Assembly: GCA_013335095.1 (NCBI GenBank)
Contig: JAAXWF010000003.1
Coordinates: 5,960-69,959 of the forward strand
Source: a candidate division WWE3 bacterium
GTDB taxonomy: Bacteria > Patescibacteriota > 4484-211 > GCA-002791395
Length of the DNA stretch: 64,000 nucleotides
Reading direction: 5' to 3'
The position numbers were made by a program, and so were the translations under genes. Shown piece by piece: positions 1 to 54,253 of this stretch (the stretch's first letter is position 1; every line of letters starts with the position of its first letter). The notes beneath the pieces were generated by a model, which made no database searches, had not been told where the DNA came from, and saw nothing but the letters and a program-made list of their open reading frames with translations.

Positions 1-1970
1 GCGCTGTAGCCAGGCACCCCGCGGTCGACCACCCGGGTGTCCACGATGATGTCGTGGTTCTTCGGATGGCGCTGCGTATAGGTGACTTTGACGTCGAACC
101 CGGCCTCGCTAAAGGCGCGGGGGATGACGATCACCTGGTGCTCGTTACGCAGCGGCACGTTGTACACCGGCGTCTCAGACGGGTTGCCGTCCGCGTCGAT
201 GTACTTGAACGCGAAGTCCGCGCTAAAGCTTGGGCCGCTCTCGGGGTTGCAGTGCATGCTGCCCCCGATGATCTCAATGACGTACCATTTGGCGATGTTG
301 CCGTCCTTGTTGACGGGCACCGCCCAGTCGAGCTGGCCATTCTGGACGTTGTACGGCCAGAAGTAGCGATTGTAGCAATCGCTACAAAGAGCCACGTCCA
401 GGCGCGGGTCCTGGCGGACTACCTCGGGCGTTGCCGACGGGGTCGGGGTCAGCTCTGTGCTGCCTCCGCAGTCCTCCGAGCCGCTGCCCGAGATGTCGCG
501 GGCAATGCCGTCATCGCCCGTCACCGTGCCGGTCCAGGAGAAGCTCGTCATCCCGACGAGCGTCCTTTCCCAGGGCAGGCTAACTACCCCCGAGCTCGTG
601 TTGAGGCTCAGGGTCGCCGTGATTGTGCCGGTGGCGTCTGTTGCCGTGACCGTCCCGGTCAGGCTGACGCCCTGCTCGATGGTCGCGCCGTAGACCTTAC
701 ACGTCGCGGTGATCTTACCGCTCCCCTGGTTGGGGGTCGACGTGCGGGTCGGGGTGGGCGTATTCGTCGGCGTGCTGGTCTCGGTGGGGGTGCCACCGCA
801 GACCAGATCCTTCTGCCCGACGACCTGTCGGGCGTTCCCCTGAAGCGGGGAGAAGGTTAGGTTCCACTCGATGTGGTGGGTGCTATTCAACGCCGTGGTG
901 AACGGCGTGTGATAGTCCCTCTCCTCATCGCCAGCGGTCTCGTTGACGGTGGCAACAATGTCGCCGTTGCTGGTGACGTTGCCGGTCAGCGTGCCGTTGC
1001 GGACTTTACCGAACAGTTCGGTGCAGTTCGCGTCGGCGGTCGCATTATCCGTCAGCGTGACGGTCGTCGCAGTCGGCGTATTCGTCGGCGTGGGCGTGTT
1101 GGTTGCCGTAGCCGTCGCTGTGGCCGGGGTGAAGCAGGGGTTGTGGACGTTGTACCAGTGGTACTCCGCCCGCTTGCCCCCCTTGGTCAGGGTGTCGAAC
1201 GCGGTGAACGTGATTTCACTCCAGACTGCCACGTCGGGCAGCTGGCTTTTCAGGATCTCCCACGTCCACGTATCCGTATTGAGCTCTTTGTGGAGCTCGT
1301 CGGTATTCCCGCTTACGGCCAGGAAGCCGTGCGGGTCGACCTCGCCATTCAGCACGAGACACACATCCGGTCCGGGCCCGGGGCGAAGCTCGCCGAAAAC
1401 GGGCCAGGCATCCATCAGCGTGGACGTCATGTTCACCAGCTGCTCGCCGTTGATGGCGAGCGAGAGGTGGACGACGTCCCCGTCGGACAGGCGGTTCAGC
1501 TTCTGGCTAAACGGCTTGTAACCGACGGAAACCGTCGCGGGCTTGAAGGTTATCGGCGTGCGGGCAAACTCGTTGCCCGTAGCCGACTTGACCACCCAGA
1601 TCGTGCCAGACACCTCGTCGGTGTCCTGGCAGTCACTGATGCTGGTCACTTCGAGCTCGACGTGCCGATCCCTGAACAGCCGGAGCATCAGGCCGACCTG
1701 GCAGGTCGGCTCGATCGACTGCACGCTAGGCGTGTTGTCGGCCGGCTTGGCTGGCACGGGCTCGGTGATCGTGATCGGCGTCTCTTTCGCAATCTCGTGC
1801 CCGCCCTGGGCGTAGGTGTTGGCCGCCGCAATGGCGGTCGCCTTCTGGGCGAGTTGGCCCGAGATGGGCAGGTTGGTGCCGCTGAGGGCCGCCGACGCGA
1901 AGGTGAAGATGGCCATCAAGGCCATCAGGGCCGCCATGATGGCGGCAAAGCGAGTTGATCGCTGCTTCAT
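1..1970 (-). CDS. large secreted protein with T/P-rich linkers; C-terminal part lies beyond the window start (partial)
   Basis: Hand translation of the minus strand from the ATG at 1968-1970 (AAGGAGA Shine-Dalgarno 8 nt upstream) gives MKQRSTRFAAIMAALMALMAIFTFASAALSG, a signal peptide, and an open frame to position 1. Contains TPT-type linkers (ATATATNTPTPTNTPTATT; GGTPTETSTPTNTPTPTRTSTP). Absent from the ORF track because its stop is outside the window. Plus-strand ORFs 54-860 and 873-1958 are its antisense shadow. GC ~65%. Confidence 0.55.
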   Translation of the reverse strand, partial: MKQRSTRFAAIMAALMALMAIFTFASAALSGTNLPISGQLAQKATAIAAANTYAQGGHEIAKETPITITEPVPAKPADNTPSVQSIEPTCQVGLMLRLFRDRHVELEVTSISDCQDTDEVSGTIWVVKSATGNEFARTPITFKPATVSVGYKPFSQKLNRLSDGDVVHLSLAINGEQLVNMTSTLMDAWPVFGELRPGPGPDVCLVLNGEVDPHGFLAVSGNTDELHKELNTDTWTWEILKSQLPDVAVWSEITFTAFDTLTKGGKRAEYHWYNVHNPCFTPATATATATNTPTPTNTPTATTVTLTDNATADANCTELFGKVRNGTLTGNVTSNGDIVATVNETAGDEERDYHTPFTTALNSTHHIEWNLTFSPLQGNARQVVGQKDLVCGGTPTETSTPTNTPTPTRTSTPNQGSGKITATCKVYGATIEQGVSLTGTVTATDATGTITATLSLNTSSGVVSLPWERTLVGMTSFSWTGTVTGDDGIARDISGSGSEDCGGSTELTPTPSATPEVVRQDPRLDVALCSDCYNRYFWPYNVQNGQLDWAVPVNKDGNIAKWYVIEIIGGSMHCNPESGPSFSADFAFKYIDADGNPSETPVYNVPLRNEHQVIVIPRAFSEAGFDVKVTYTQRHPKNHDIIVDTRVVDRGVPGYS

Positions 1971-2388
1971 ACGAGCACGTCTCCTTGAAGTCTAAGCTAT
2001 TCCGACTTGTGAACGTACGACGCGAGACTTTCCTGCATTTCTGCAGGTGGACGAATAGCCTTATAGGCATTCTCCTTTTTCAACGCTTAACATAGCGGAC
2101 TCAGGGTGTGTACCACTGAGTGATTCACACCCATAAGCCCACTATGAAAGGTTGATAAACATAGATTGGATTGTTAAGGTGCATGCTTGGCATGAAAGCC
2201 TAAGCAACACACAAAACAGTGAGTTATCCAGTCGGTTTATTTACCTTCTGGATAGCTTTATTATACCCTATAGTAACCAAGGTTCAAGTCCTATATTAAA
2301 TGATATGTGCTGTAATATCGCGTGGAAATAATAACACATTGTATATAGATTTATCGGAGTGAGTAAAATCGTTATACAACGTTTATGC

Positions 2389-2424
2389 AAAAAAAGGGGG
2401 TGATGGCTTGATAGCCACCACCCC
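2389..2424 (-). terminator. rho-independent terminator downstream of the sortase gene
   Basis: A 12-bp stem with 11 of 12 pairs (ggggtgatggct / agccaccacccc), then a run of 7 T on the minus strand. Lies 68 nt after the sortase stop codon. Confidence 0.6.
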
Positions 2425-2492
2425 GGTTTATGGGTACCACCTCATTGTGGTTAATTTCCGCCTTCTGGGGCGGTATCCGTTTTTGTCGTCAC

Positions 2493-3230
2493 TTAGTGAA
2501 CAATCACCGCATCCACCACCCGCGTGTGCGTGTAGTGGTCGATGATCCCGTTGACGATGATGGCGGTGCCATCACACGTCACAAGTCGTGCATCAACTCC
2601 CGACACCGGGGTGTTGAGCTCAGCGTACTGCTGGCCTCCACCCGGAATCTGGGTCGATGCAATAACTTGCAGGACTGTGGGGCAGTCCTGATCCCGCTGC
2701 CAGTATTCGAACTGATCACCCACCGCGAGGCGAGCGATCTTGCCGAACGGCGCGGGAATCGCCGCGGCATTCCGATACCGAGCGACATGACCACGGAACA
2801 CGGTGGTCGTGCCGCTACCGAAAATCCCGGTCGTAATGTCGATCATCGCGTCATGGCGAGGCGTCGACATCACCGTCCCGGTTACCACCCATGTGGCGTG
2901 GCCGAGACTCGGGAACGAGAGCATCCCGACGACATTGTCGGGAATCTCGCTCCACCTGACTGGGTTTACACATCGCGGAGCTACTGCGGCCTCGGGGACG
3001 TCCTTGTCCTCCTTGGTCGTGGTAACTATCTCCGGTACCGGGAGGTTTGATCTCCAAGGTTCCGGAGTGATTTGGGGCGGGAGGCCCGGGTCTGCCTGCA
3101 GTCCGTCTGCGGCAGGAACCGAAACCGCCGTTGGCGTAGTGTCGTTACCAAGGAGTGCTGGACGCCCGAAGGCGAGAACCAGCACCCCAAGGATGACACA
3201 CGCCAGCGCGAGGCCGCGCTGGATGTTCAT
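2493..3230 (-). CDS. sortase-family transpeptidase (class D/E-like)
   Basis: N-terminal signal/anchor MNIQRGLALACVILGVLVLAFG. The TVFRGHVARYRNAAAIPAPFGKIARLAVGDQFEY segment resembles the sortase GH(R)..APF..L..GD motif. RLVTCDG resembles the TLxTC catalytic-Cys motif, with an Arg downstream (THTRVV). The ATG abuts the stop of the upstream substrate-like gene (TAAATG). GC ~62%. Confidence 0.55.
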   Translation of the reverse strand: MNIQRGLALACVILGVLVLAFGRPALLGNDTTPTAVSVPAADGLQADPGLPPQITPEPWRSNLPVPEIVTTTKEDKDVPEAAVAPRCVNPVRWSEIPDNVVGMLSFPSLGHATWVVTGTVMSTPRHDAMIDITTGIFGSGTTTVFRGHVARYRNAAAIPAPFGKIARLAVGDQFEYWQRDQDCPTVLQVIASTQIPGGGQQYAELNTPVSGVDARLVTCDGTAIIVNGIIDHYTHTRVVDAVIVH

Positions 3231-5021
3231 TTACTCCACCTCCACCTGGGAGGTGACCTGCGTCTTGCGGCGTGGCCACATCAGGACGATGGCGAAGGTG
3301 AACAGGATCAGCGCTAAGAGCTCGCGCATGCCGGTAATCGATTTCGACGGCACCCTTGCCGCCTCAACCCGAACGAGGAGCTTCATCGCATCCTCGTCGG
3401 ACAGCTCTCCGGCTTCCGGTGTCCCCGTCAGTGTGGGCGGGGGAGTGTTGGTAGCCGTGGGAGTGTTGGTGTTGGTCGGTGTCGTGGTGACCGTAGCCGT
3501 ATTGACCGGCGTATTGGTCACCGTGGGCGTGTTGGAAGGTGTCGCCGTGTTGGTCGGCGTCGTGGTTGTACCTGTGTTTGTCGTGCTCGACGGAGTCGGG
3601 GTGGGCGGGACCTTGCGGGTCCAGCTCCCCTCGTTCGAGGAGCAATCATTAACCAGGTTAACTCGGACGCCGATGGTCGGCGCACCGTCCACTACCGGCC
3701 AGGTGTTAACTGGCGGATAGTTGATTACGATGCGCTCGCTGTTCGACGCAAGCCTTCCGGTGGCAACCATCGGGCTGCCGTCCGAAAGGGTGAGAGTGAC
3801 ACCTGTACCAGGGTTGTAGAAGGTCACGGTGTACGTGACCGGCGCGCCCTGGGTTAGGGTCACTACGTCGGTGTCATTGCCGTCCCGGCTCGCCGCGTAC
3901 TGCGGCTGAATCACCGGGCAGGCGACAGCGGTCGCTGTGGTCGATGTCGTCGTTGGCGTATTCGTGTTGGTCGGCGTATTCGTCGGCGTTGACGTCCCGG
4001 TGGGCGTCGGAGTCGACGTATTGGTCGGCGTGCTAGTCTGGGTCTGAGTTGGGGTGAGTGTGGGCAGAGGTGCGCTATAGCAGTCTGCGCCACCGCTACC
4101 GTTCCCTCCATTGGCCCAGTTGATCCAGGCGTCGAACGCCTTCAGTTGGCCGATTCTCTGCCAGCGCCACCAGGTGGCGCCATCCAGTACCACGGTGGTA
4201 AAGTCCGCGGCGCTGAGTGACAGCGTCTGGGTGACGTCGTCGGTACCGACCACGAGCGCCTGAGCCGAAACTGGCTCTAGGCTGCTCCACAACGACAGTG
4301 TCGCGGTGAGGGTTGTTGTCCCCCCAACGATACCTGTCTCTGTGGTGCACGCTGCCCGTACCGTACCCGCCACCGGAGTGGCGGTGTTGGTCGGGGTCGA
4401 CGTGTTGGTCGGCGTATCGGTGATCGTCGGTGTAAGCGTGGCCGGACGCGGTGTGCGCGTCGGCCGAGGCGTGTTGGTCGGTGTGTTGGTTGGCGACGGA
4501 CCGGACGTTCCGGTCGGCGTCGCTGTCCGAGTTGGCCGCGGCGTGTTGGTGGGACCCTGCGTGAGGGTCGCCGACGCCGTTGCCGTCTCGGTCGGAATGC
4601 TGGTGTCGGTCGGCGTGGCGGTGTTGGCCGGTGTCGAGCTGGGAAGCGGGGTCGGGCTGGGGTTTGAGGCCCCACACCGAGCGCCACCGCTCCAGTTCGA
4701 GAGGCCGATCTGTTCCGGGTAGACAATCGTCGCGGTGAAGCTGACGATGTCGCCGGTGAGCGACCAGTTGCCGACGTCGGCGGTCACCGTCTCGCTGTGC
4801 CCGTCGGCGTAGACCACCACGATGGTGGCGGTGCCGACCGGGTTCGAGCTAAGGCTGACCGTCGAGTTCCCCGGCTGATAGGCGCACTGGGCGCCGCGAA
4901 CCGGGTTGACGGACGACTGGCCAAAGGCCAGGTGGATCGACGCGGTAAACATAACCAGGGCCAAGATGCCCCGGATCCAGCTTTTCGCCGCAAGGCGGCG
5001 AAGGTTGTTGAGCGTAATCAC
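3231..5021 (-). CDS. secreted Thr/Pro-repeat cell-surface protein with C-terminal hydrophobic anchor and basic tail (putative sortase substrate)
   Basis: GTG start with AAAGGAGAG Shine-Dalgarno. Signal peptide MITLNNLRRLAAKSWIRGILALVMFTASIHLAFG. Long PTNTPT/TPTxT linker repeats. C-terminus ...VPSKSITGMRELLALILFTFAIVLMWPRRKTQ (hydrophobic stretch then RRK) resembles a cell-wall sorting signal but lacks a canonical LPXTG. GC ~65%. Confidence 0.6.
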   Translation of the reverse strand: MITLNNLRRLAAKSWIRGILALVMFTASIHLAFGQSSVNPVRGAQCAYQPGNSTVSLSSNPVGTATIVVVYADGHSETVTADVGNWSLTGDIVSFTATIVYPEQIGLSNWSGGARCGASNPSPTPLPSSTPANTATPTDTSIPTETATASATLTQGPTNTPRPTRTATPTGTSGPSPTNTPTNTPRPTRTPRPATLTPTITDTPTNTSTPTNTATPVAGTVRAACTTETGIVGGTTTLTATLSLWSSLEPVSAQALVVGTDDVTQTLSLSAADFTTVVLDGATWWRWQRIGQLKAFDAWINWANGGNGSGGADCYSAPLPTLTPTQTQTSTPTNTSTPTPTGTSTPTNTPTNTNTPTTTSTTATAVACPVIQPQYAASRDGNDTDVVTLTQGAPVTYTVTFYNPGTGVTLTLSDGSPMVATGRLASNSERIVINYPPVNTWPVVDGAPTIGVRVNLVNDCSSNEGSWTRKVPPTPTPSSTTNTGTTTTPTNTATPSNTPTVTNTPVNTATVTTTPTNTNTPTATNTPPPTLTGTPEAGELSDEDAMKLLVRVEAARVPSKSITGMRELLALILFTFAIVLMWPRRKTQVTSQVEVE

Positions 5022-5260
5022 TGCGCTCTCCTTTTTGCTGTTGACCGATCATCCGAATCGAACTTGGACGAATTACGATGTGTAATCGATAAGTTTTCCT
5101 TTCACTAAGTGGCTTGTTAATGTGCGACCGGCTTAGGGCCGGACACACCCTGATTCTGCGAATCAGGAGATAGCCACCTGCGTGGTTATCTAGTTTAATT
5201 GTATTACTATAGGATTGACGATCAAGCTGTTTAGATCGATATTATGGGTAAAATACTATG

Positions 5261-5974
5261 TTAGCGATTGATATAGTTACCATATTTATAGGTAACTGCG
5301 TTGGCCTGTTTAAAGCGTCCCAGCGCGAAAAATACTGATAGTTTAAGATAAAGTAAAAAAGTGTTATACACACCGTCGCGTCGAAATCTTCGATCTGAAA
5401 CATGGACAGAAGCTTTCAGTGTGCGATATCTGTGTCTTTTGCCTACTCGTCTGATGAATTCAATGTCTTCGTACAGCATTGCGGTATCAAAGCCGGTGTG
5501 GTCATGGAAAATGTCTCGGTAAATAATGAATGCCATTCCCGCACCCGAAGGGACGATCTTTGAAGTATGTTTAAAAATGGTGTTAAAGATCTGATAGATA
5601 CGTTTTATGGTTAGACTGGTGGTCAGCGGTATGAATGTTGGGCAGGCAGCATGTAAGTGTCTTTTTGTAAATTCATCTATAAGTTCTTGGTACTGTTTGG
5701 GAGATACTCGACTATCTGCATCGAGGAATAACAAGATCTCTCCAGTGGCGATGTCTGCCCCTTTGTTTCGTTGTCGAGCTATACCTGGCTGCTCTTGGAG
5801 CATGACGACTGAAGGATAAGATAAAAGAAGCTCTCGCGAGCGATCGGTTGATCCGCCGTCTACAACTATTATTTCATGAATATGATCAGTTGACGCTAGT
5901 AAATCATCAAGCAAGTCGGGAAAGACATGTTCTTCATTTAATACCGGAATAATTATCGATACCGTAGGTTTCAT
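5261..5974 (-). CDS. family-2 glycosyltransferase (carotenoid-cluster associated, CrtQ/CruC-like by context)
   Basis: MKPTVSIIIPVLNEE...IIVVDGGSTDRS and FLDADS motifs are typical of GT2. The gene overlaps the upstream UbiA gene by 4 nt. Confidence 0.65.
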   Translation of the reverse strand: MKPTVSIIIPVLNEEHVFPDLLDDLLASTDHIHEIIVVDGGSTDRSRELLLSYPSVVMLQEQPGIARQRNKGADIATGEILLFLDADSRVSPKQYQELIDEFTKRHLHAACPTFIPLTTSLTIKRIYQIFNTIFKHTSKIVPSGAGMAFIIYRDIFHDHTGFDTAMLYEDIEFIRRVGKRHRYRTLKASVHVSDRRFRRDGVYNTFLLYLKLSVFFALGRFKQANAVTYKYGNYINR

Positions 5975-6822
5975 ATTGGTTTCGTGCTAATAATAACAAA
6001 AAATAATATTGCGCCGATACTACTGTTTATATAGGGAAAAAGTTGATATGTGCGGAAAATATATTCTACTCGTTGAAATAACAACCAAAACATAGTAATT
6101 GGATAGACCCACATGAAGATACTAAAAGGGAAAAAGTCGGGTTTGAATGAGAGAAACAGGGCTGGAGCTAACCATAATAATCCGCAGGTTAATAGTGCTA
6201 TTCGAGGTCCAAGCAATACGGCTGAAGTATCTAGGTGCGCGGATTTATCGGCCTGAATATCTGGTATTGCTGAAAATAGATGCATAGCCATTGTCCAGCA
6301 GCAACAAACAGCAATTATTACACCGGGAACCGTGTTGTCAGAGGATAATGTATAGCCAAAGAACCCCGGTAGCGCATACAATATATTTGATAAAGAATCG
6401 AACACTGGCGTCGCCTTAAAGCGTACCGGTGGTGCGCTATATAATACACTTAGCATATTAAATCCAACCATCAAGAACTGAAGTTGCCTTGATGGAGCGA
6501 TCAGCGCGATTCCTAATCCGACAACACCGCTAATGATACTCATCATTTTAATAGTTTTGTGATGCGATTCAGATACCCGCTTTTCGTAGCTGAGTTTCTT
6601 GGGATTACGTGAGTCCGTATCTGAGTCATATAAATCATTAACTCCATATAAAAGACAATTTGCTACGATAAGAAAATAGATTGCATAAGCAAAAAAGTAA
6701 TTAGTAAAGAAATCGGTCCAATGACTAATTCCGCATGCATATCCTATTAAGTATGGCCCGATTAAATACATCCAGAAGCGCGGACGTGAAAAGTTAAGTA
6801 AAGCGATAATCCTATGTATCAT
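5971..6822 (-). CDS. UbiA-family prenyltransferase (possible lycopene elongase CrtEb/LyeJ-like)
   Basis: Polytopic membrane protein with RPRFW near the N-terminus and the NDLYDSDTD (NDxxDxxxD) motif plus a second DIQAD motif. Sits in the carotenoid cluster. Confidence 0.65.
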   Translation of the reverse strand: MIHRIIALLNFSRPRFWMYLIGPYLIGYACGISHWTDFFTNYFFAYAIYFLIVANCLLYGVNDLYDSDTDSRNPKKLSYEKRVSESHHKTIKMMSIISGVVGLGIALIAPSRQLQFLMVGFNMLSVLYSAPPVRFKATPVFDSLSNILYALPGFFGYTLSSDNTVPGVIIAVCCCWTMAMHLFSAIPDIQADKSAHLDTSAVLLGPRIALLTCGLLWLAPALFLSFKPDFFPFSIFMWVYPITMFWLLFQRVEYIFRTYQLFPYINSSIGAILFFVIISTKPI

Positions 6823-6871
6823 ATCGTCATTATATCTTTGCGGTTAGAAACAAAACTGTTAAAATCGCGGT

Positions 6872-7948
6872 ATGGCAGAGAATGTCGGCTTATCGTTTCT
6901 TCAGGATTACGCGGTGAAAACTGACCCATTGTTTGAAAAATACCTCCATCAAAAAATTGAGCAAGCCCAGGAAATCAGCAAGATACCAGGCGAATTACTT
7001 CGTCGTTTCTTAGAAATGGGACGTAAAGGTAAGAAAATACGGGGAGCATTAACTGTTTTGGGTTATCAGGCGGTCGGAGGACGTGATCTCGAAGCTATTT
7101 TTGATGCTAGTTTATTTTTAGAGCTTTTCCATGCCGGAGTCTTAGTACATGATGACATTATGGATCAGGATGATTTGAGACGGGGATTACCGACGCTTCA
7201 TGTCCAATTTGCAGAAGTCGGTACAGCATTACATGTTCATCCGAATCCCTCGCATTATGGCTATTCTATGGCAGTAAACGCGGGAGATGCTGCTTTTTAT
7301 CTCTCGTGGGAAAAACTGATGCAAAGTCATTTTGATCCAGATCGATTAATCGACGTTGGGCAAATCTACGCTGATTACGTCATTCGAGTCGTACATGGAC
7401 AAGTGCTTGATATTACCGACTCATCGATGGGAAGTATTACTCAGGAGGACGTGATGAAGGTTCGACAATATAAGACCGTTGAATATACTGGTGTGCTCCC
7501 TCTACTCGTTGGCGCAGCATTCGCTGGACCGGTATCGAAACCTCTTCATGATGCGATTCAACAGTATGGGAATGCACTAGGCTGGGCGTTTCAAATTCAG
7601 GATGATCTACTCGGGATCTTTGGTGATACCGATACGATGGGCAAACCTACTGGATCGGATATCCGTGAAGGTAAACAAACCCTACTAGTGCTACACGTGA
7701 TGGAACATGGTAATAAAGACCAGAAGGCTTTTTTACGACATGTTTTGGGCAATCAATCAATCACGCCGGCAGAGATAGATCAAACGCTCGAATTGTTTAA
7801 ACAGACCGGAGCGTATGATGTGGTGATTAAGCGTGGTTGGGATTATGTTAAGCAGGGAGCTGACGTTATACCTCACATAACTTCGGATGCTAAGATCCAG
7901 GAGATATTGAATGGATTGATTAACTACATGATGGAACGGGTCAAGTAG
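6872..7948 (+). CDS. crtE: polyprenyl (geranylgeranyl) diphosphate synthase
   Basis: First aspartate-rich motif LVHDDIMDQDD and second FQIQDDLLG, typical of trans-isoprenyl diphosphate synthases. Confidence 0.8.
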   Translation: MAENVGLSFLQDYAVKTDPLFEKYLHQKIEQAQEISKIPGELLRRFLEMGRKGKKIRGALTVLGYQAVGGRDLEAIFDASLFLELFHAGVLVHDDIMDQDDLRRGLPTLHVQFAEVGTALHVHPNPSHYGYSMAVNAGDAAFYLSWEKLMQSHFDPDRLIDVGQIYADYVIRVVHGQVLDITDSSMGSITQEDVMKVRQYKTVEYTGVLPLLVGAAFAGPVSKPLHDAIQQYGNALGWAFQIQDDLLGIFGDTDTMGKPTGSDIREGKQTLLVLHVMEHGNKDQKAFLRHVLGNQSITPAEIDQTLELFKQTGAYDVVIKRGWDYVKQGADVIPHITSDAKIQEILNGLINYMMERVK

Positions 7949-8784
7949 TTTTGTATTCCCTTACTTAAAATTCGAGTAGGAGAAGGTTTTATCTTTTTGA
8001 CAAAAACAATCAGGGGATCTTTGTAAATTTGATCGGCTGTCCAGCGGTACATATCATTTGCGGTTTGGATTGGACCCTGATATCTATTCGGAATATAGGT
8101 GAATCCCGTACGTGCTTTCTCTTCCCATGACCAATACAGTTCTATTTGTTTTTTTATACATGAGACAAAAGCTTCTTTATGTCGTGAGGTGTGCTCGTAC
8201 GATAAATCGGTAAGAGAAAATTCATCAAGCTGTTCTTGAGGAATATACTGACGACCAAAAGAATTATCTTCAGTAATATCTCGAATGAAGTTAATATATT
8301 GCATCGATTTTCCAAGTAATTGGGCCGTCGAATAGCTTTCTTCTGGCAATTTCATCATTTTTGCCATCATTAACCCGATCACTTCAGCTGATCCATACAT
8401 GTACATATCTAATTGTTCAAGTGTCTCATATTTTTTTATGGTTAAATCTGCTTCCATTGCGGCTATAAATGCATCCGGCCAGTCATAGGGGAATTGGTGC
8501 TTTATTGATAGCGCGTGGAATGATCGGATTACTTCGGACGAGCTGGGCTTGCCATTCCGATGTTCATAATATTCGTATTTAAATTGATTAAATACATTTT
8601 TCTGCTGCGGAATGGTGTCTACAAAGTTATCCACCGTACGCACAAAACTGTACAACACAAATACGTCATCTCGTAGCAATGGTGGGAAAAAAATGCTACT
8701 AAAAAAATATGTTCGGCTTCCGTTAAAAAAAATTCGACTGAGATTTGCACTAATCATATTTTTGGGCGATTTGATCTGAAACAA
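7924..8784 (-). CDS. crtB: phytoene (or dehydrosqualene) synthase
   Basis: Squalene/phytoene synthase family signature YMYGSAEVIGLMM. Arranged as crtI-crtB in tandem. Confidence 0.75.
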   Translation of the reverse strand: MFQIKSPKNMISANLSRIFFNGSRTYFFSSIFFPPLLRDDVFVLYSFVRTVDNFVDTIPQQKNVFNQFKYEYYEHRNGKPSSSEVIRSFHALSIKHQFPYDWPDAFIAAMEADLTIKKYETLEQLDMYMYGSAEVIGLMMAKMMKLPEESYSTAQLLGKSMQYINFIRDITEDNSFGRQYIPQEQLDEFSLTDLSYEHTSRHKEAFVSCIKKQIELYWSWEEKARTGFTYIPNRYQGPIQTANDMYRWTADQIYKDPLIVFVKKIKPSPTRILSKGIQNYLTRSIM

Positions 8785-10225
8785 TCTCTGAAGAAATCAG
8801 TGTAATCGGTACCCCTATCCCAGGATGAGTGTATTGACCGGTATAAAATAGATTTCCAACCTTATGACTTTGATGATGTGGACGAAAAACTGCCGTCTGA
8901 AACATCGTATGGCTGATTCCCAGTGCAGTACCTTTAAATGCGTTGTAATAGCTTATATAGTCGTTATGAGCAAACGATTGTTCTACTACAATGGCATCTC
9001 TAATGGTTGTTTGGAGTTTTTGCTCTAGATGGTCCAATATTTGTTTACGAAATGATTGACGGATCTCTGGTGTATCGGTAAGTCCCGATGCTACAGGAAC
9101 TAAGATAAATACGTTTTCACCATCTGCAGGGGCTACTGACGGATCGGTTTTAGATGGAACCGATACGTAGTATGAAGGCGAGGTAGGCCAGCTCGGATTT
9201 TCAAAGATTGCGTCAAAGTGTTTAATCCAATCCCGATCTATAAAAATATTATGATGTTCAAGACCAGGTATCTTTTTGTTTAGGCCCAAATAGAGTATGA
9301 ATGCTGATGGTGCCACCGTCCTTTTTTGCCAGTATGATTCGGGGTATGTCTGGTATTCTGGTGGAAGAAGTTTCGTTTCGGCATGATGATAATCTGCGTT
9401 CATCACGATAATATCTCCGTGGTACTCATTATTTTTCGTTTTCACACCCACAGCATTTTTATCTTTAATTATTATTGATGTTACTGGTTCATTGAGGATA
9501 AATTTTGTTCCGAATGATTCAGCTAAATTTTGGATACCTTTTACAACCGCCCCATAACCACCCATGGGATAATATACTCCTTGAGTAAAATCTACATGTG
9601 AAATTAATGAATACAAAGCAGGAGTGTTCTTTGGTGCTCCGCCAAGAAAGACAATACTATATTGCAATAGTTGTCGTAGTTTCTCATTTTCAATAAATCG
9701 TTTTGTGAATCGATCCAAATTTTCAAATAACCGTAGTTTTGTACCTTCAAGTATGAGGCGCTTGTCAAAAAGATCACTAAGGTAACGATAGTCTCGGTAC
9801 AAAAAAGTATTAAGGGCAACATTATATTTATACTCAGCATCGGCTAGATATTTTTTTAATTTAATATCGCCGTCTTTCTCATATTTTTTAAATATTTCCA
9901 AGTTTTTTCCGATATCCGGACTTACATCGATACTATCGTCATCACCAAAAAATGCCCGATATGATGGATCTAGTTTTACGAGCTTGTAGAAGTCGGTGGG
10001 CTTTTTATTAAAACGCGAGAAAAAATGTTCAAAGACTTCAGGCATAAGATACCAAGATGGTCCCATATCAAATGAGTAACCATCTATTTTAAGGATACCT
10101 GCCCTACCTCCAACCTGGTCGTTTTTTTCGATAACAGTGACGTCAAAGCCGTCTCGACTGAGCGACGCAGCTGCTGATAATCCACCGAATCCTGCACCGA
10201 CGATAATTACTTTTTTCTGTTTCAT
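8750..10225 (-). CDS. crtI: phytoene desaturase (FAD-dependent)
   Basis: N-terminal Rossmann motif VIIVGAGFGGLSAAASL...EKNDQVGGRAG. 491 aa. C-terminal region is CrtI-like. Confidence 0.8.
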   Translation of the reverse strand: MKQKKVIIVGAGFGGLSAAASLSRDGFDVTVIEKNDQVGGRAGILKIDGYSFDMGPSWYLMPEVFEHFFSRFNKKPTDFYKLVKLDPSYRAFFGDDDSIDVSPDIGKNLEIFKKYEKDGDIKLKKYLADAEYKYNVALNTFLYRDYRYLSDLFDKRLILEGTKLRLFENLDRFTKRFIENEKLRQLLQYSIVFLGGAPKNTPALYSLISHVDFTQGVYYPMGGYGAVVKGIQNLAESFGTKFILNEPVTSIIIKDKNAVGVKTKNNEYHGDIIVMNADYHHAETKLLPPEYQTYPESYWQKRTVAPSAFILYLGLNKKIPGLEHHNIFIDRDWIKHFDAIFENPSWPTSPSYYVSVPSKTDPSVAPADGENVFILVPVASGLTDTPEIRQSFRKQILDHLEQKLQTTIRDAIVVEQSFAHNDYISYYNAFKGTALGISHTMFQTAVFRPHHQSHKVGNLFYTGQYTHPGIGVPITLISSEIVSDQIAQKYD

Positions 10226-10240
10226 GTGTGACGTTCCTAC

Positions 10241-10984
10241 ATGATATTATATGTGTGCGTGACTAGAAAGCCTATTTTAAAGAAAAGCTTGAATCATATA
10301 ACGCCCTCTCGCATCGCGTTAAATAGAAAGATAATCCTCTTTGGAAAAATTATAAAACGATTTATATGGCCTTCCTTCAATGAATTGCAGGTTTATGTTG
10401 TTTTTTGCATGTGCTTTTTTAACGTAGTAGCTCATTGGGATTTTTGGTGGTCGTTTTATTGGTATTCAGATATCCAGTTACTCATAGGTGGACCGATACT
10501 CTTGGGCATATTTTCTTGGTATCTATTTAAAAATATAATTTCTCAGGAAAAAACACCGCCCAACGAAAGGAAATGGCTGATTTCGTTTTTCTATATCGCC
10601 ATGGCGGTTATTTCTGTTGATAGCTTGTCGTCATACGATTTCGTATCTACCCGAATTATGTTGATCGATTACATAAACTTTTGGTTAATTTATCTATCAA
10701 TCGGATCTTCGGTAATTAGACTAATACTTACGATTAGTTTATTTGATAAACAATATATTGAGGCCCTTTATGACCGAATGAACGATACTCAATTTTCTCC
10801 AATGTACTTCATTTTTGCGACATCGCTGTGCGGGTTTATCTATTTATTACTGGCTAATCATTATAATCAGTCAACTATTATTGTCTTGGGCTATTATTAC
10901 GTGAGCCAGATATTAAGCGTTGGGCATACGATACAAACAAAGTGGTTGGTTCAGAATAAACAAGAAACTTCGGTATTAAAATAG
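10241..10984 (+). CDS. hypothetical integral membrane protein (start uncertain, possibly ATG at 10409)
   Basis: Several hydrophobic helices. The listed ORF's 5' end overlaps the crtI promoter region. The in-frame ATG at 10409 is a plausible alternative start. No recognisable family. Confidence 0.35.
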   Translation: MILYVCVTRKPILKKSLNHITPSRIALNRKIILFGKIIKRFIWPSFNELQVYVVFCMCFFNVVAHWDFWWSFYWYSDIQLLIGGPILLGIFSWYLFKNIISQEKTPPNERKWLISFFYIAMAVISVDSLSSYDFVSTRIMLIDYINFWLIYLSIGSSVIRLILTISLFDKQYIEALYDRMNDTQFSPMYFIFATSLCGFIYLLLANHYNQSTIIVLGYYYVSQILSVGHTIQTKWLVQNKQETSVLK

Positions 10985-11114: not shown

Positions 11115-11205
11115 TGGCGGAGGAGATGGGATTCGAACCCATGGGCGGTTTTTAGACCGCCACGGTTTAGCAAACCGCTGCCTTGGACCACTCGGCCACT
11201 CCTCC
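11115..11205 (-). tRNA. tRNA-Ser (anticodon GCU), CCA encoded
   Basis: The reverse complement folds as a class II tRNA. It has a 7-bp acceptor stem (GGAGGAG), anticodon stem GCGGT/ACCGT with loop TTGCTAA, a long variable arm, T-loop GGTTCGAATCC and a 3' GCCA. Confidence 0.85.
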
Positions 11206-11291: not shown

Positions 11292-12020
11292 TTGTGTACC
11301 ATGAAGCCCAGACTAATCGTATTTTCATTATCAAGCTTGGCTGAAAAGCAAGTCAATCCGTATATCTCGGTATCAGCATCCCTTGGCTGTGCATCTGAGT
11401 TCGCATACCTCTTTTCTGATTATCAGAAGGGGAATATATCGTATGGGGATCTATTAAATCGTGAATCGAACTTGTTATATTACAAATATCACGAACAGTT
11501 TGGGCATTATCCTCAAAAAGGAGATCTGGAAATGTTTCTGCCTGAAGTTACTCTAAGCTCGCAATGGCAAACTGCACTCTCTAATATTAACTTACCACAC
11601 ATTACCTTTGCAGTGATTAGTTCGGGGATTTACAAATCCATCCATCTTGATTCATTTGATGGTCTTATTCATCCGTTCAATCGATTTTTGTATAGCGAAG
11701 ACGGCGAGTTCGCCAAAATCGTTGCGACTGTGTCTGGTGATAAGATTGAGGCATTCAATCGAATTGTCGAGAAAACTCATAACCAGATTATTGATACTCT
11801 TTTGGTGGTAAATGACAACAACGATTCTGCTCTCTGTCGCTACGTGCTTGAACTAGGGGGATCAGTGTGCTTTATTGCCCACAAAAATCAAGCCATTGAC
11901 GTTCCCCGGTACGAAAAAATGCACTGGATTGATACTCTTGATAGTTTTGTTGATTTTGTTAAGTCTTCAGAACCTGTTCCGTATCGACGTGTTCCTCGGT
12001 ATCAATTACTTGCTGCCTAA
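11292..12020 (+). CDS. hypothetical protein
   Basis: 242-aa ORF in host-typical composition. No recognisable motifs. Confidence 0.4.
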   Translation: MCTMKPRLIVFSLSSLAEKQVNPYISVSASLGCASEFAYLFSDYQKGNISYGDLLNRESNLLYYKYHEQFGHYPQKGDLEMFLPEVTLSSQWQTALSNINLPHITFAVISSGIYKSIHLDSFDGLIHPFNRFLYSEDGEFAKIVATVSGDKIEAFNRIVEKTHNQIIDTLLVVNDNNDSALCRYVLELGGSVCFIAHKNQAIDVPRYEKMHWIDTLDSFVDFVKSSEPVPYRRVPRYQLLAA

Positions 12021-14086: not shown

Positions 14087-14176
14087 TGGCGGAGGAGGTG
14101 GGATTCGAACCCACGATGACGTTGCCGCCATAACGGTTTTCAAGACCGTCGCACTCGACCACTATGCGACTCCTCC
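14087..14176 (-). tRNA. tRNA-Ser (anticodon UGA), CCA encoded
   Basis: Reverse complement GGAGGAGTCGCATAGTGGTCGAG...GACGGTCTTGAAAACCGTT... with anticodon loop CTTGAAA, a long variable arm, T-loop GGTTCGAATCC and a 3' GCCA. Confidence 0.85.
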
Positions 14177-14250: not shown

Positions 14251-15603
14251 CTAAAGCTTTTTAATTGTTTCAATATAGGCATTTACGTCAAATTTACGTT
14301 TTGCGCCGTTATCGTTCATATATCGTATGTTGCCAAAAATCGGTCGTTTATTCCAGGGCCGGTCATGGACCCCACCCATGGACCATGCGATTCCGGCATA
14401 CCCGTTTGGATCTCGTCCATCGAGTTCGTATTTATCATTTAGATATATCGCATACTCCACGGCTTCCTGAGCATTTATCGTCCATTCAAGAATCTTTTTA
14501 CCCCAATACATTCTCATGTATCCATGCATCTTTCCGGTCATGGTCATTTCTTTTTGTGCCGCATTCCACAACTGGTCATGCGTGTTGGCAGACTCCAAGT
14601 CATCAATCGTATACAAATATGGACGTTTATCGGACTCATGCTCTTGCAGCGTTTGTTTTGCCCAATCCGGAAAACCATCGGTAGAATCGTAGTTTGAATT
14701 ATAAAAACAAAAGTTATCACTCAATTCTTTTCGAACGATCAGCTCTTCTAAATACCCTTCTTGAAGGGAGGGCTCTACATTTGACCGTTTTACTTCATTG
14801 GCTATCTCTTGGCTTGAGATATGTCCAAAATGTAGGTACGGAGCAATATTCGACTGACCTTTTCGTGACGGATCATTTCTATCTGCGTCATAATTGGCTA
14901 ATTTCTGTTTAATAAACTCACGAAGTGCATTTCGAGCTGCTTTTTCACCGGGATCAACTCCCTTTACAGTTGTAACCGACCGGTCTATTGTATGCCGTGT
15001 GAGGATATCCTCATACTCAAATGTGTTAGTTGTTGGGGCAATGTTAAAGGGGTGTCGTATAACATCGGGATATTGCGTTAAGAACTCGGGGAGAAGCTTT
15101 TTTATCTTCGGACGAATTGTATAGGCGCCATATTCTTGTTTTGAAGATGTTACCCAAACAGGAACGATATTATGTGCATCAACCTCGACCATGGGGATAT
15201 TTATACTTTGCGCAATATCATTACGCCAACCTCTACCTATTTTCAGCGGCGAAAAGTCGGTAACTAATACACCAGCCGTATTTTTTGTTACATAATGCGT
15301 GACCGTATCGATCGGATTACCGAATAGTAATGTCGCAGAGATGTTTAGTTTTTGGAGTTCGTTAAACGTTTCTTGAATACCATGAAGCATAAAGTCAATA
15401 TTTCGTAAATTTGCATACTGAAATTTAGTATCAAAACTAAAAATTACTGAAAGTGAAGATTTACGGGCAAGGGCCAATTCTTGGGCATATATGAGCGCCC
15501 AATTGTTATGAACGCGTTGATCGCGACTCATCCAATAAATAATAGAACCTTGTTGGTGAATTTGATTTTTATTTAATTGATGGACTCGACGCAGATCAAC
15601 CAT
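14251..15603 (-). CDS. phr: deoxyribodipyrimidine photolyase, class II
   Basis: C-terminal FAD-binding signature TGKMHGYMRMYWGKKILEW, typical of class II CPD photolyases. 450 aa. Confidence 0.8.
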   Translation of the reverse strand: MVDLRRVHQLNKNQIHQQGSIIYWMSRDQRVHNNWALIYAQELALARKSSLSVIFSFDTKFQYANLRNIDFMLHGIQETFNELQKLNISATLLFGNPIDTVTHYVTKNTAGVLVTDFSPLKIGRGWRNDIAQSINIPMVEVDAHNIVPVWVTSSKQEYGAYTIRPKIKKLLPEFLTQYPDVIRHPFNIAPTTNTFEYEDILTRHTIDRSVTTVKGVDPGEKAARNALREFIKQKLANYDADRNDPSRKGQSNIAPYLHFGHISSQEIANEVKRSNVEPSLQEGYLEELIVRKELSDNFCFYNSNYDSTDGFPDWAKQTLQEHESDKRPYLYTIDDLESANTHDQLWNAAQKEMTMTGKMHGYMRMYWGKKILEWTINAQEAVEYAIYLNDKYELDGRDPNGYAGIAWSMGGVHDRPWNKRPIFGNIRYMNDNGAKRKFDVNAYIETIKKL

Positions 15604-15615: not shown

Positions 15616-16854
15616 TTATACCGGCAGCTCATCCATTTTGGTTGAATCTTTTTGCAGGAACTTGAATCCATTTACCCAGAAGTACTCTAAACTGTACTTA
15701 AAGTTATATCTTTTCCAAATTGTTAGGATCATTGACCAGACGACTATATTAATAAACCCAAACAATAAACAACCATTAATTGTTTGGGTCCAGTCGGGAT
15801 TTAGTTGTAGTAATGGGATTCGGATCAGTTCTGATACGGTTGTTTCAAGCATATAAATAGTTAAGCTTATCCGGCTAAATTGGGTTAGTAATGATAGTCT
15901 ATTCGTGAGCCATTCCATTGGTTCAAGCACCAAATACGTGACCGATACGAGTATTAGGAATATACCCAGTTCACCGTTCGTTTTGAAATACCAAAAATAA
16001 TCAGGGGTTGATATCGTTTTTTCAAAGTTCATCATCCCTGCTACTCCGTATATAAGAAAAATAACTCCCAAGGGAATGATTACTTTTTTAAGCAATCCTT
16101 TATGTCCGTTATAGATCATTAATCCTATTAGCGCACCAAAGAATCCATACGATACATAGGGGAGGAGTGGGTAGGGATTTGCGAGTGTGAATCCTAGGAT
16201 TGTTGCCGTTATAAAATTGTGGTGTTCTATTGTTGTGGGTAATAAGTGGTACAAGGGTACCCGAACGAACGACAGTACCATAATAACGATGCCGGCTACT
16301 GCGAAGACCATGTATTGTTGGGCCGATGATAGAGCCTTCTTATTTTTGTTCATGAAATATAGGATGAGCGAAACGATAAATAAGTTGAGAGCGATAGTCG
16401 AAATTGAAGATCCATCAAAATATTTAGAAATCTCTGGAGTCGAGAAATGCAACGTTCGTAATACTCGGGCGATGATTGTTAAGTCGGGTTGGTTGTTAAC
16501 AAAATCATTGTTCCATCGACCCAAGACGATATTTAGAATGTAATGGAGGATTAAATAAACCCCTAAAGTAATCGATGCTGTTTTAATACTGAATGATGGG
16601 GATTTATCCTGAATTCGGTTCACCGTTAAGAGTGAGTTAATAACCGCTGAGTAAACAATGAATATGCCTCCCCATAGAGCCATAAAGCTCATAATTACGA
16701 CAATGATGGGCGGGTTACTAAAATCAATTTTATGTATGTTCGCAAAGTTATAAATCGATGAGTGAAAAAGGATGATCAATATGAGGGCAAATCCCCTTAA
16801 TACATCTAGTGATTTGATACGGTGTTGTGTGTGAATATTAGTTTCCTGCATCAA
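15616..16854 (-). CDS. DUF418/DUF1624-like polytopic membrane protein (acyltransferase-3 superfamily-like)
   Basis: N-terminal LDVLRGFALILIILFHS motif and about 10 TM helices. Confidence 0.45.
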   Translation of the reverse strand: MMQETNIHTQHRIKSLDVLRGFALILIILFHSSIYNFANIHKIDFSNPPIIVVIMSFMALWGGIFIVYSAVINSLLTVNRIQDKSPSFSIKTASITLGVYLILHYILNIVLGRWNNDFVNNQPDLTIIARVLRTLHFSTPEISKYFDGSSISTIALNLFIVSLILYFMNKNKKALSSAQQYMVFAVAGIVIMVLSFVRVPLYHLLPTTIEHHNFITATILGFTLANPYPLLPYVSYGFFGALIGLMIYNGHKGLLKKVIIPLGVIFLIYGVAGMMNFEKTISTPDYFWYFKTNGELGIFLILVSVTYLVLEPMEWLTNRLSLLTQFSRISLTIYMLETTVSELIRIPLLQLNPDWTQTINGCLLFGFINIVVWSMILTIWKRYNFKYSLEYFWVNGFKFLQKDSTKMDELPV

Positions 16855-18208
16855 ATTCTCTTTTTATACGTATCAATTTCTGTGAGCGTGTATTTACTTC
16901 TGGCTTTTCAAATGCGATATCAACGTGGGGTTGCTGGCATTTATACTCAGTAAATACATTCATTATCGCATTTTTTAACTTCTGTTGGTCAAATGAAGTC
17001 GGCGCGATTCTCGATCGTAATTGAATTCTAACATAAATTTCGGTAGGACTCTTTTGAATCGCCTGGTATTCTTCGATGTCCTCAGAAGAAGATATTATCG
17101 CTCGACTAATATAATCGGGAAAAATAAACTGCCAAGATTCTGATCCAATCGTATGACCCCAAAACATGTCATCTGATCTTCCTTGAATGCGCTCAATAAC
17201 TCGAAATGATGATCCGCAGGTGCAAGGTGTCTTGCAAATGGTAATAATGTCATTTAATTCATATCTGATGATCGGCTGGGATCGTTTGTGTAGATCTGTT
17301 ACGAGCAATTTGTGACAAGGTTGTCCGAGTGGTGTCGGTGACCCATCTTGATTGAGTGTTTCGACAAGAACTAAATCTTCATTAATGTGTAAGTTGTCAT
17401 GTTTACATGAAATCGCAATAGCTCCTTCGGTGCATTTATAGATTTCATTAACTGAACAATTAAATATCTTAGTAAGGTACTCACGTACATCTTGATACAA
17501 CACTTCAGCATATGAGACGAGTTTAAGTGGCTTGATCTTAAGTCTATTTTGCTCCTGCTCCTGCGCTAGAAGTTTGAGCATCGACGGTGGGGCAGAGACC
17601 AGGTTGGGTTTAAGATCGTTTAATTGACGAACAATATCCTGCATTGGTTGAAGCTGAGTAATATAGGTAAGTTTGTGACCAAACATATTTAAGTTGAATG
17701 CAGGTGTGCTTACTCTAAGGATAAATGCTAAATTGATCTTCTGGTTTTTAGGAAAATTGAATCGGGCGAAAAACGCTGCTTTTAAGTAGGATTCTTCGCT
17801 ATGTGTTAATATTTCTACTCCTTTATTTCCACTTGTACCTGATGACATCCCAATATTTATATTGTTCAACCGTCGTGAATAGTCCCGTGTTTTTTCAATA
17901 TCAAGACAAAAGTTGATTATTTCATCTTTTGTTAATCCAAGAGTATTGTACTCAGTTAAGTTGTCCATCATGATTTTTTTATTCACTGTGGGAAGATGCG
18001 CGAAGTCGTTTTTATTATAGTTTGCGTAATGCTTTTTAAAAAATGATGAGTGTGCCGAAGCGTATTCAACTATCTTCTGGGTTTTTCTCTTCTGGTAAAA
18101 TTGTATATCTTTGGTTTTCCAACTATAGAAACGATATCGGCATAATAAATAAAAGAGTCCAAAATATTTCGTTTCAAAATCATCAAATACCCGCTCAATA
18201 AGTGCCAT
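16838..18208 (-). CDS. CapK / phenylacetate-CoA-ligase-like adenylate-forming enzyme
   Basis: Adenylation P-loop MSSGTSGNKG, 456 aa, F390-synthetase/PaaK-like architecture. Overlaps the downstream membrane-protein gene. Confidence 0.55.
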   Translation of the reverse strand: MALIERVFDDFETKYFGLFYLLCRYRFYSWKTKDIQFYQKRKTQKIVEYASAHSSFFKKHYANYNKNDFAHLPTVNKKIMMDNLTEYNTLGLTKDEIINFCLDIEKTRDYSRRLNNINIGMSSGTSGNKGVEILTHSEESYLKAAFFARFNFPKNQKINLAFILRVSTPAFNLNMFGHKLTYITQLQPMQDIVRQLNDLKPNLVSAPPSMLKLLAQEQEQNRLKIKPLKLVSYAEVLYQDVREYLTKIFNCSVNEIYKCTEGAIAISCKHDNLHINEDLVLVETLNQDGSPTPLGQPCHKLLVTDLHKRSQPIIRYELNDIITICKTPCTCGSSFRVIERIQGRSDDMFWGHTIGSESWQFIFPDYISRAIISSSEDIEEYQAIQKSPTEIYVRIQLRSRIAPTSFDQQKLKNAIMNVFTEYKCQQPHVDIAFEKPEVNTRSQKLIRIKREFDAGN

Positions 18209-18298: not shown

Positions 18299-18385
18299 TG
18301 GCGGAGGGAGGGGGATTCGAACCCCCGCAGACTTACGCCTACACGCTTTCCAAGCGTGCTCCATAAACCACTCGGACATCCCTCC
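18299..18385 (-). tRNA. tRNA-Ser (anticodon GGA), CCA encoded
   Basis: Reverse complement GGAGGGATGTCCGAGTGG...CACGCTTGGAAAGCGTG... with anticodon loop TTGGAAA, a long variable arm, GGTTCGAATCC and a 3' GCCA. Confidence 0.8.
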
Positions 18386-53440: not shown

Positions 53441-53521
53441 TTATTCTTATTGCCCTTTAGATATCATGATGATTTGAACGCCCCCTGATAATTTGATAGT
53501 GTGAGGTTTTATAAGAAATAA

Positions 53522-54220: not shown

Positions 54221-54253
54221 TTGGCATATGTATGGTAAAAATATACCTATAAT

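Follow-up and report, generated by a model that had tools for sequence, protein, structure and literature searches.

A carotenoid gene cluster of a WWE3 bacterium couples a LyeJ-family prenyltransferase gene with that of a putative carotenoid glycosyltransferase

The DNA analyzed here is a 64-kb stretch (the window) from a WWE3 bacterium of the candidate phyla radiation (CPR), and the analysis of the locus is confined to it. The feature region, at positions 5261–10225, is a carotenoid gene cluster of five open reading frames (ORFs). These encode a GT2-family glycosyltransferase of the GT-A fold (5261–5974, minus strand, 237 aa; PF00535, E = 7e-26), a UbiA-superfamily prenyltransferase of the LyeJ/Lye family (5971–6822, minus strand, 283 aa; PF01040, E = 3e-20), a polyprenyl-diphosphate synthase in the CrtE position (6872–7948, plus strand, 358 aa; PF00348, E = 3e-56), the phytoene synthase CrtB (7924–8757, minus strand, 277 aa; PF00494, E = 2e-48), and a CrtI-family desaturase of the CrtID type (8750–10225, minus strand, 491 aa; TIGR02734, 470 bits). 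All five were found intact, with the positions, strands, and domains that a preliminary description of the sequence had assigned to them. That description had also paired the UbiA and GT2 genes on the minus strand. They overlap by 4 nt and are thus taken to be translationally coupled. The overlap between crtI and crtB is 8 nt, given the crtB start at ATG 8757, which was also used by an independent gene call (the frame is open to TTG 8784). The crtE gene is convergent with crtB, with an overlap of 25 nt (7924–7948), and 49 nt (6823–6871) lie between the divergent starts of UbiA and crtE. In related loci, crtI-crtB-crtE-UbiA are colinear; the window has crtE at the same position but inverted. 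The promoter of the UbiA–GT2 pair may be located within the crtE gene; alternatively, crtE may be crossed in antisense by a long minus-strand transcript. A promoter and terminator scan of positions 5000–10500 gave no excess over the shuffled expectation. A Pfam scan of the 54 window ORFs of at least 90 aa detected no cyclase, CruF, Blh, or rhodopsin, and the earlier statement that no lycopene cyclase is present holds within the window. For CruF, there was neither a PF04240 protein nor a tblastn match anywhere in the 64 kb, and no retinal-forming gene was found in the window.

The UbiA protein scored 277.7 bits on the model NF009516 (PRK12875; cutoff, 205). This model carries only the name “prenyltransferase,” and its meaning was checked through the genomic context of its members. 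When 185,579 species genomes were scanned with an alignment of UbiA relatives, 587 relatives were returned, including those of the cultured Halobacteria Halorubrum, Halococcus, Halosimplex, Haladaptatus, and Halovenus. The haloarchaeal genes lie between a CrtI-type desaturase gene and cruF, which is the canonical crtD-lyeJ-cruF order, and two LyeJ orthologues with this synteny (from Halococcus and Halorubrum) reached 442–444 bits on NF009516. The window protein is 36 to 39% identical to 14 haloarchaeal orthologues. Of the 92 positions at which these do not vary, it has the same residue at 71, while a distant UbiA protein (P0063) does so at 27. The conserved stretches shared with haloarchaeal LyeJ include NPKK, YSAPPxRxK, DSxSN, and MHxFSAIPD. 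The NDLYDSDTD motif corresponds to residues 62 to 70, and the two Asp-rich prenyl-diphosphate/Mg2+ motifs, N62-D63-x2-D66-x3-D70 and D188-x3-D192, are invariant across 38 relatives. The sole relative by sequence in the Protein Data Bank (PDB) is the prenyltransferase AfUbiA (4tq3), and the closest relative anywhere shows 45% identity. In a neighbor-joining tree, the haloarchaeal LyeJ orthologues nest within one tight family far from the outgroup, and the window protein is on a long, unplaced branch. Of the 87 related loci, 76 have a CrtI-type gene next to the LyeJ-type UbiA gene. Both crtI and crtB of the window are at a distance of 2 kb or less from UbiA.

UbiA-superfamily membership (PF01040) taken alone would also fit a different function, in which the UbiA protein and the polyprenyl synthase make a quinone, heme O, or an ether lipid and the GT2 protein is a wall enzyme. 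The scores on the corresponding models were far below their cutoffs: 22.5 bits for MenA (cutoff, 264), 24.8 bits for digeranylgeranylglyceryl phosphate synthase (cutoff, 296), 29 to 30 bits for the chlorophyll synthases BchG/ChlG (cutoffs, 212–313), and 47.9 bits for homogentisate phytyltransferase (cutoff, 226). The claim of an elongase-type UbiA protein is thus borne out, as the Lye model was passed and the first three kinds of model gave only 22 to 30 bits. The score for digeranylgeranylglyceryl phosphate synthase likewise agrees with the earlier view that the adjacent crtB and crtI genes argue against ether-lipid synthesis. The UbiA gene is moreover embedded among crtE, crtB, and crtI, and its relatives have the recurrent CrtI-type neighbor described above. 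The quinone or ether-lipid reading is effectively refuted. LyeJ/Lye is a lycopene elongase/1,2-hydratase, and the predicted activity of the UbiA protein is the addition of a C5 unit at C-2 of lycopene with hydration at C-1. We consider it highly probable, from the protein family and its gene neighborhood, that the cluster is a LyeJ-family elongase cluster. The linkage to CruF expected of a canonical bacterioruberin cluster was not seen in the window, and the GT2 gene is in that position. This difference bears on the end product and not on the identity of the UbiA protein.

The CrtI-family protein belongs to a specific type. It scored 687.5 bits on NF058655, the model of the bifunctional phytoene desaturase/3,4-desaturase CrtID (cutoff, 640). 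The LyeJ-adjacent desaturases of Halococcus, Halorubrum, a Fimbriimonadales metagenome-assembled genome, and the related loci L002 and L005 reached 656 to 772 bits on the same model, with 734 to 772 bits for the haloarchaeal ones. The CrtID name goes back to Haloarcula japonica, where the type enzyme C0507 (the “crtD” product encoded beside lyeJ) and D1086 were each shown by knockout and complementation to have both CrtI and CrtD activities (Yatsunami et al. 2024, PMC11946383). The window desaturase is of the CrtID type and predicted to be bifunctional. The earlier label “crtI” was therefore right about the family and needs correction to a bifunctional CrtI+CrtD type; since the protein is of this type, one desaturase would be enough, and no separate crtD would be needed. 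CrtB is 41 to 51% identical to the CrtB proteins of crtI-crtB-UbiA clusters in CPR, Armatimonadota, and methanogens. The CrtE protein has both Asp-rich motifs (DDIMD and DDLLGIFGD), and many related loci encode a homologue of it (28–36% identity) between the crtB and UbiA genes. It reached no equivalog cutoff in NCBIfam, with best scores of 154 to 199 bits. CrtE probably makes geranylgeranyl diphosphate (GGPP).

The GT2 protein is more difficult to assign by resemblance. Its best named match was TIGR04283 (148.6 bits), below the cutoff of 182, and the other LyeJ-linked GT2 proteins scored 117 to 135 bits. Pfam recognized GT2-type domains only (PF00535, PF10111, PF13632, and PF13641), and no GT1/UDP-glycosyltransferase domain of the CrtX type was among them. 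On the CruG equivalog NF045692, the protein scored 24.3 bits (cutoff, 600), with a match confined to the N-terminal nucleotide-binding segment. No CrtQ or CruC model matched at E ≤0.01 in NCBIfam or Pfam. The AlphaFold2 model has a predicted local distance difference test score of 95 and a canonical, generic GT-A fold. Because its structural neighbors are also generic GT-A enzymes (TM-score ~0.65, ≤22% identity), the acceptor is not deducible from the fold. The residues conserved across 41 relatives are D85-A-D87, D39, E14, D170 (in the YEDIEF stretch), and R195-R196, and the C-terminal helix at residues 202 to 217 (YNTFLLYLKLSVFFAL) is hydrophobic. In the protein database, ~30 nearer relatives (35–56% identity, at least ~130 bits) are followed by a continuum of generic TIGR04283-like proteins. 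A separate polysaccharide cluster of the window, at 52445–62959, encodes an NDP-sugar epimerase/dehydratase, an RmlD-like protein, two GT2 proteins, two GT4 proteins, a flippase, and methyltransferases; these two GT2 proteins are 27 to 35% identical to the carotenoid-linked one over partial length only.

The link of the GT2 protein to the pathway comes from synteny and gene fusion, not from resemblance. GT2 relatives are encoded immediately 3′ of a LyeJ-type UbiA gene in 17 loci of CPR and Armatimonadota, where the reading frames of LyeJ and GT2 overlap or nearly abut. All six of the nearer GT2 homologues examined (35–46% identity, at least 146 bits; L002, L006, L007, L008, L009, and L090) are encoded directly 3′ of a LyeJ gene in a crt cluster, and two homologues at 116 to 121 bits are without LyeJ context. 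As the distant relatives lose the carotenoid context, the near group appears to be a pathway-specific subfamily, and the GT2 protein was not found to cluster with generic wall enzymes. In the preliminary description, it had been called similar to carotenoid glycosyltransferases such as CrtQ and CruC. Its dedication to the pathway stands, but membership in the CruG or CrtX families does not (24 bits versus 600 for CruG, and no GT1 domain); with CrtQ and CruC, the GT2 superfamily is all that it was seen to have in common.

A census from the UbiA side covered 87 related loci, with ~6 kb on each side. The GT2 gene was directly downstream of UbiA in 15 loci and CruF was present in 46; 26 loci had neither, and none had both (Fisher p = 2.4e-6, uncorrected for phylogeny). 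The GT2 type occurs in Levyibacteriota, Gracilibacteria, and unclassified Patescibacteria, all CPR, and in Armatimonadota. Four loci of the latter phylum encode a fusion of GT2 with a type 1 isopentenyl diphosphate (IPP) isomerase, 418 to 430 aa in length (L010, 1280–2536; L013, 5369–6661; L014, 6822–8081; and L016, 6813–8078). The isomerase segment was detected by tblastn in all four, and the fusion proteins of L013 and L010 reached 211 to 215 bits on NF002995 (cutoff, 127). IPP isomerase makes dimethylallyl diphosphate (DMAPP), the prenyl donor of LyeJ; the fusion thereby ties the GT2 protein to the isoprenoid pathway. Stand-alone IPP isomerase genes flank LyeJ–CruF clusters in Acidobacteria and in L003. 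The idea that the GT2-linked LyeJ proteins form their own clade was rejected, because they were not a clade in the neighbor-joining tree.

Here, we propose that the GT2 protein is a carotenoid 1-O-glycosyltransferase encoded in the usual position of CruF. The main rival explanation is that it is merely cotranscribed and acts on another lipid acceptor or an envelope glycan, for example in making a polyprenyl-phosphate sugar, and that the pigment, a C50 (or C45) carotenoid like bisanhydrobacterioruberin, is left unglycosylated. Its PDB matches by sequence include the polyprenyl-phosphate glycosyltransferases ArnC, DPMS, and GtrB-like sll0501 (~26 bits), and a small soluble GT2 protein with a C-terminal hydrophobic helix is typical of that class. 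Furthermore, TIGR04283, which is the named family closest to it, has no relation to carotenoids. Such an acceptor is difficult to reconcile with the strict adjacency to LyeJ in the 17 loci of at least two phyla, with the GT2 and CruF genes never occurring together, with the fusion to IPP isomerase, and with the loss of carotenoid context among distant relatives. We consider this rival unlikely, albeit worth keeping in view. Beyond the window, the LyeJ-adjacent GT2 proteins may constitute a previously unrecognized carotenoid glycosyltransferase family that has repeatedly swapped with CruF in CPR and Armatimonadota; we advance this broader proposal tentatively, rating its chances slightly below even. 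The pathway outlined below builds on direct observations, namely the gene content of the loci, the family memberships by hidden Markov model cutoff, the conserved gene order, the fusion with the isomerase, and the finding that GT2 and CruF exclude each other.

In the predicted pathway, CrtE would make GGPP, and CrtB would condense two GGPP molecules to phytoene. CrtID would convert phytoene to lycopene and later introduce the 3,4 and 3′,4′ double bonds. The LyeJ-type UbiA protein would transfer a C5 unit from DMAPP onto C-2 (C-2′), with a hydroxyl group placed at C-1 (C-1′). Acting at one end and then at both, it would yield first C45 and next C50 intermediates, as far as bisanhydrobacterioruberin. 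The GT2 protein, which is presumed to be an inverting GT-A enzyme with its DAD motif and hydrophobic C-terminal helix, would use an NDP-sugar to glycosylate the tertiary C-1 (C-1′) hydroxyl. An acyclic C45/C50 carotenoid mono- or diglycoside located in the membrane would result. Because there is no CruF, the expected end product is a bisanhydro-type C45/C50 glycoside, not the tetrahydroxy bacterioruberin. Each catalytic step, as well as the product's chain length, the identity of the sugar, and the glycosylation site, is what we infer from the genes. The core of the preliminary description, namely a carotenoid cluster with a lycopene-elongase-type UbiA protein and a dedicated GT2 protein whose predicted product is acyclic and elongated and/or glycosylated, is consistent with these results. 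We favor, as the probable interpretation, a native and complete LyeJ-type (bacterioruberin-series) pathway in which the GT2 protein replaces the terminal C50 hydratase CruF and the product is both elongated and glycosylated.

A further possibility is that the UbiA protein does not elongate, being a hydratase only or using another acceptor, and that the product is an acyclic glycoside of a C40 hydroxy-carotenoid, similar to rhodopin glycoside. The long unplaced branch of the protein and its identity of at most 45% to any relative would allow this, and the window contains no IPP isomerase gene. However, both Asp-rich motifs and the 71 LyeJ-invariant residues are retained. In the characterized LyeJ, prenyl transfer and hydration are coupled (Yang et al. 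2015, cited in PMC10892129), which speaks against a hydratase alone. The IPP isomerase fusions and neighboring isomerase genes in sister clusters suggest a demand for DMAPP. A C40 product is therefore improbable, more so than the unglycosylated one discussed above.

Several points weigh against an elongated and glycosylated product. The pathways of CPR and Armatimonadota are known from genes alone, and neither IPP isomerase nor other isoprenoid-precursor genes were found in the window. The absence of cruF and cyclase genes applies to the 64-kb window, not to the rest of the genome, and the exclusion statistic ignores phylogeny and spans only ~6 kb on each side. CrtE passes no equivalog cutoff, which leaves its product length to inference. 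The GT2 protein matches no characterized carotenoid glycosyltransferase family, as the low CruG score illustrates; TIGR04283, its nearest named family, is annotated for a different pathway, and its structural neighbors are the generic GT-A enzymes mentioned above. Finally, since the GT2-partnered LyeJ proteins are no separate clade, no sequence signature ties LyeJ to a glycosylated product.

The origin of the cluster had to be considered because the GC content falls abruptly from ~63% to ~39% at 4950–5250, a drop that coincides with the 3′ end of the GT2 gene. This drop next to the GT2 gene is what would be expected if the cluster were an assembly chimera or a contamination foreign to the WWE3 genome. 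The foreign-looking composition is confined to the left 5 kb. The GC content at third codon positions (GC3) is 0.31 to 0.39 in the cluster genes, like that of rpoC and dnaK, and 0.70 to 0.79 in the left-hand genes; it follows from this contrast that the anomalous part is the left flank and not the cluster. The junction was reproduced with 100% identity by an independent Logan assembly, and the cluster recurs in the related genome L002, again with the CBS and CitMHS genes as its neighbors. A chimeric origin of the cluster was ruled out by codon composition and the synteny with L002, and we assign a foreign source only a very small probability. The cluster is native to the WWE3 genome. The rest of the window consists of ordinary housekeeping genes, including rpoBC, infB, ftsK, the dnaK operon, nusA, murJ, gap, and tpi.

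The left flank itself (window positions 1–5100) is a block of 62 to 70% GC amid DNA of 38 to 40% GC. It contains three minus-strand genes, whose GC3 of 0.70 to 0.79 compares with 0.27 to 0.40 elsewhere, and its intergenic stretches are AT-rich. Two genes encode secreted surface proteins with Thr/Pro linkers: one extends from 3 to ~1980 and runs off the window end, and the other (3231–5021) has a C-terminal transmembrane segment and a basic tail. The third (2493–3230) encodes a divergent sortase-like protein. The plus-strand ORFs at 54–860 and 873–1958 are shadow ORFs. An HMMER scan of the sortase-like protein for the donor of the flank gave weak relatives only, two of them with PF04203. The flank looks like a recent transfer of a sortase/surface-protein cassette from a high-GC donor, possibly a host lineage, or a chimeric join.

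The closest characterized counterpart is the haloarchaeal crtD(crtID)-lyeJ-cruF cluster, as in Haloarcula japonica (c0507-c0506-c0505) and Halobacterium salinarum (lye). It shares the LyeJ family (NF009516, 36–39% identity) and a directly linked desaturase of the same CrtID type (NF058655, 45–48% identity). Both clusters imply an acyclic substrate, with no cyclase encoded in either. The window differs in having GT2 instead of CruF, in including crtB and crtE, and in its low-GC CPR host. Among CPR, lyeJ, crtD, and cruF have been reported in Lake Baikal Patescibacteria (PMC9948471), and in our genome scan, related clusters came up for Levyi-, Magasanik-, Gracili-, Doudna-, and Saccharibacteria. 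The earlier remark that such a pathway is unusual in a CPR bacterium is weakened by that report and by these clusters. The Baikal genes and the crtI-crtB-crtE-UbiA-CruF clusters of CPR found here (L003, L005, and L083) encode the same LyeJ, CrtID, and CrtB families, with 37 to 45% identity for LyeJ. They carry CruF and sometimes a second desaturase and an IPP isomerase, whereas the window has GT2, a single desaturase, and no CruF within 64 kb.

A comparable logic, in which a UbiA-type C5 elongase acts first and a tertiary hydroxyl is then glycosylated, applies to the glycosylated C50 carotenoids of Actinobacteria (decaprenoxanthin glucosides of Corynebacterium glutamicum, with crtEb and crtX, and bacterioruberin glycosides of Arthrobacter). 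The window UbiA protein scored 106 to 118 bits on the sister models NF009608 and NF010119, below their cutoffs. In contrast to the actinobacterial systems, the window has no C50 cyclase genes. No UDP-glycosyltransferase (GT1-type) domain was seen in its GT2 protein. TIGR04283 (“rSAM/selenodomain-associated transferase 2,” an arsenosugar biosynthesis glycosyltransferase) has the same size of ~235 aa and the single GT-A domain. However, all LyeJ-linked GT2 proteins (117–149 bits) are under its cutoff of 182, no radical-SAM partner adjoins the GT2 gene, either here or at those related loci that were examined, and the context is that of carotenoids. A putative lyeJ-crtD-“crtQ?” operon has been described in the Asgard archaeon Ca. 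Kariarchaeum (bioRxiv 10.1101/2024.09.18.613612). Like the window, it combines a LyeJ-type gene, a desaturase gene, and a putative carotenoid glycosyltransferase gene, with a linear bacterioruberin-series product predicted. The Asgard loci that we retrieved (Thor-, Hermod-, and Promethearchaeota) carry CruF, not GT2.

With the Baikal genes and the Asgard lyeJ-crtD-“crtQ?” grouping already reported, a LyeJ-type cluster in CPR is not new in kind. In the literature searched, the LyeJ–GT2 module as an alternative to LyeJ–CruF, its GT2 subfamily, and the fusion of GT2 with IPP isomerase were all undescribed. The LyeJ–GT2 finding extends a known pathway incrementally and introduces no new principle. 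As CPR bacteria are believed to obtain most of their lipids from hosts, a complete and compositionally native five-gene pathway for a bilayer-spanning C50-type pigment, with its recurrent photolyase link, would be informative. If the pathway is real, some CPR bacteria invest in membrane and photoprotective chemistry of their own and live where light or oxidative stress matters. If the broader proposal of a GT2 family that swaps with CruF also holds, many uncultured bacteria with tiny genomes would themselves produce glycosylated C50 carotenoids that span the membrane, which would serve both as light protection and as rivets for membranes otherwise made of scavenged lipids. The LyeJ–GT2 pair is a concrete candidate, cheap to test, for a carotenoid glycosyltransferase family that would be new, and it would provide access to C45/C50 carotenoids in glycosylated form.

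Genes near the cluster bear on the role of the pigment. The class II cyclobutane pyrimidine dimer photolyase gene noted previously, 4 kb from the cluster (14251–15603, minus strand, 450 aa), was confirmed by 606.4 bits on TIGR00591 (cutoff, 550). A photolyase gene is directly beside the LyeJ cluster in five unrelated loci: L008 (7714–9063), L090 (5345–6694), L072 (6814–8136), L071 (3–1256), and L069 (1248–2591). The enzymes of L008, L069, L071, and L072 are 46 to 55% identical to that of the window, and that of L090 was recognized by the PF00875 domain only. In L008 and L090, the photolyase gene immediately follows GT2, with an overlap between the two in L090, and it appears to be in the same operon as the cluster. 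This recurrent adjacency backs a light- or UV-related role, and in that respect the idea of a light-exposed lifestyle gains support. The pigment likely functions in photoprotection and membrane reinforcement, consistent with the recurrent photolyase link.

Other neighbors of the cluster are less informative. Divergent from crtI is a gene for a multi-transmembrane protein of 247 aa (10241–10984; the NCBI call is 191 aa from 10409). It was considered as a hidden analogue of CruF, Blh, or rhodopsin and rejected, as it had no Pfam or NCBIfam match and no homologue in the related loci. A search of 5.8 billion proteins returned no homologue beyond itself, and it is treated as an orphan outside the carotenoid module. 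Another orphan near crtI (11292–12020, 242 aa) has no family match and is absent from all related loci. Just upstream of the photolyase gene, on the same strand, are head-to-tail genes in an operon-like arrangement for an AMP-binding-like protein (16838–18208, minus strand; weak PF00501) and an acyltransferase-3-like membrane protein (15616–16854, minus strand; PF01757, 25.7 bits, below the cutoff). By analogy with carotenoid glycoside esters, they were considered for a glycoside-acylation step, and this assignment was rejected since they are not conserved near any other cluster.

Clusters of the crtI-crtB-LyeJ type were also observed in methanogens, as in L037 (3641–7529) on the complete chromosome of Methanobacterium sp. 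ACI-7, and further such loci are L034, L048, L067, L079, L081, L019, L039, L066, L087, and L089. Asgard archaea have these clusters as well. To our knowledge, a C50-carotenoid pathway would be unexpected in strict anaerobes. No CruF was seen within ~6 kb in the Methanomassiliicoccales loci L019, L039, L066, and L087 or in the Methanosarcinaceae locus L089; the Methanobacteriaceae loci carry CruF within this distance. Elsewhere in the window, the small protein encoded at 43073–43711 has a type I dockerin domain. The stretch from the carotenoid cluster to gap/tpi includes three minus-strand tRNA-Ser genes (11115–11205, 14087–14176, and 18299–18385; anticodons GCT, TGA, and GGA), distributed across 7 kb.

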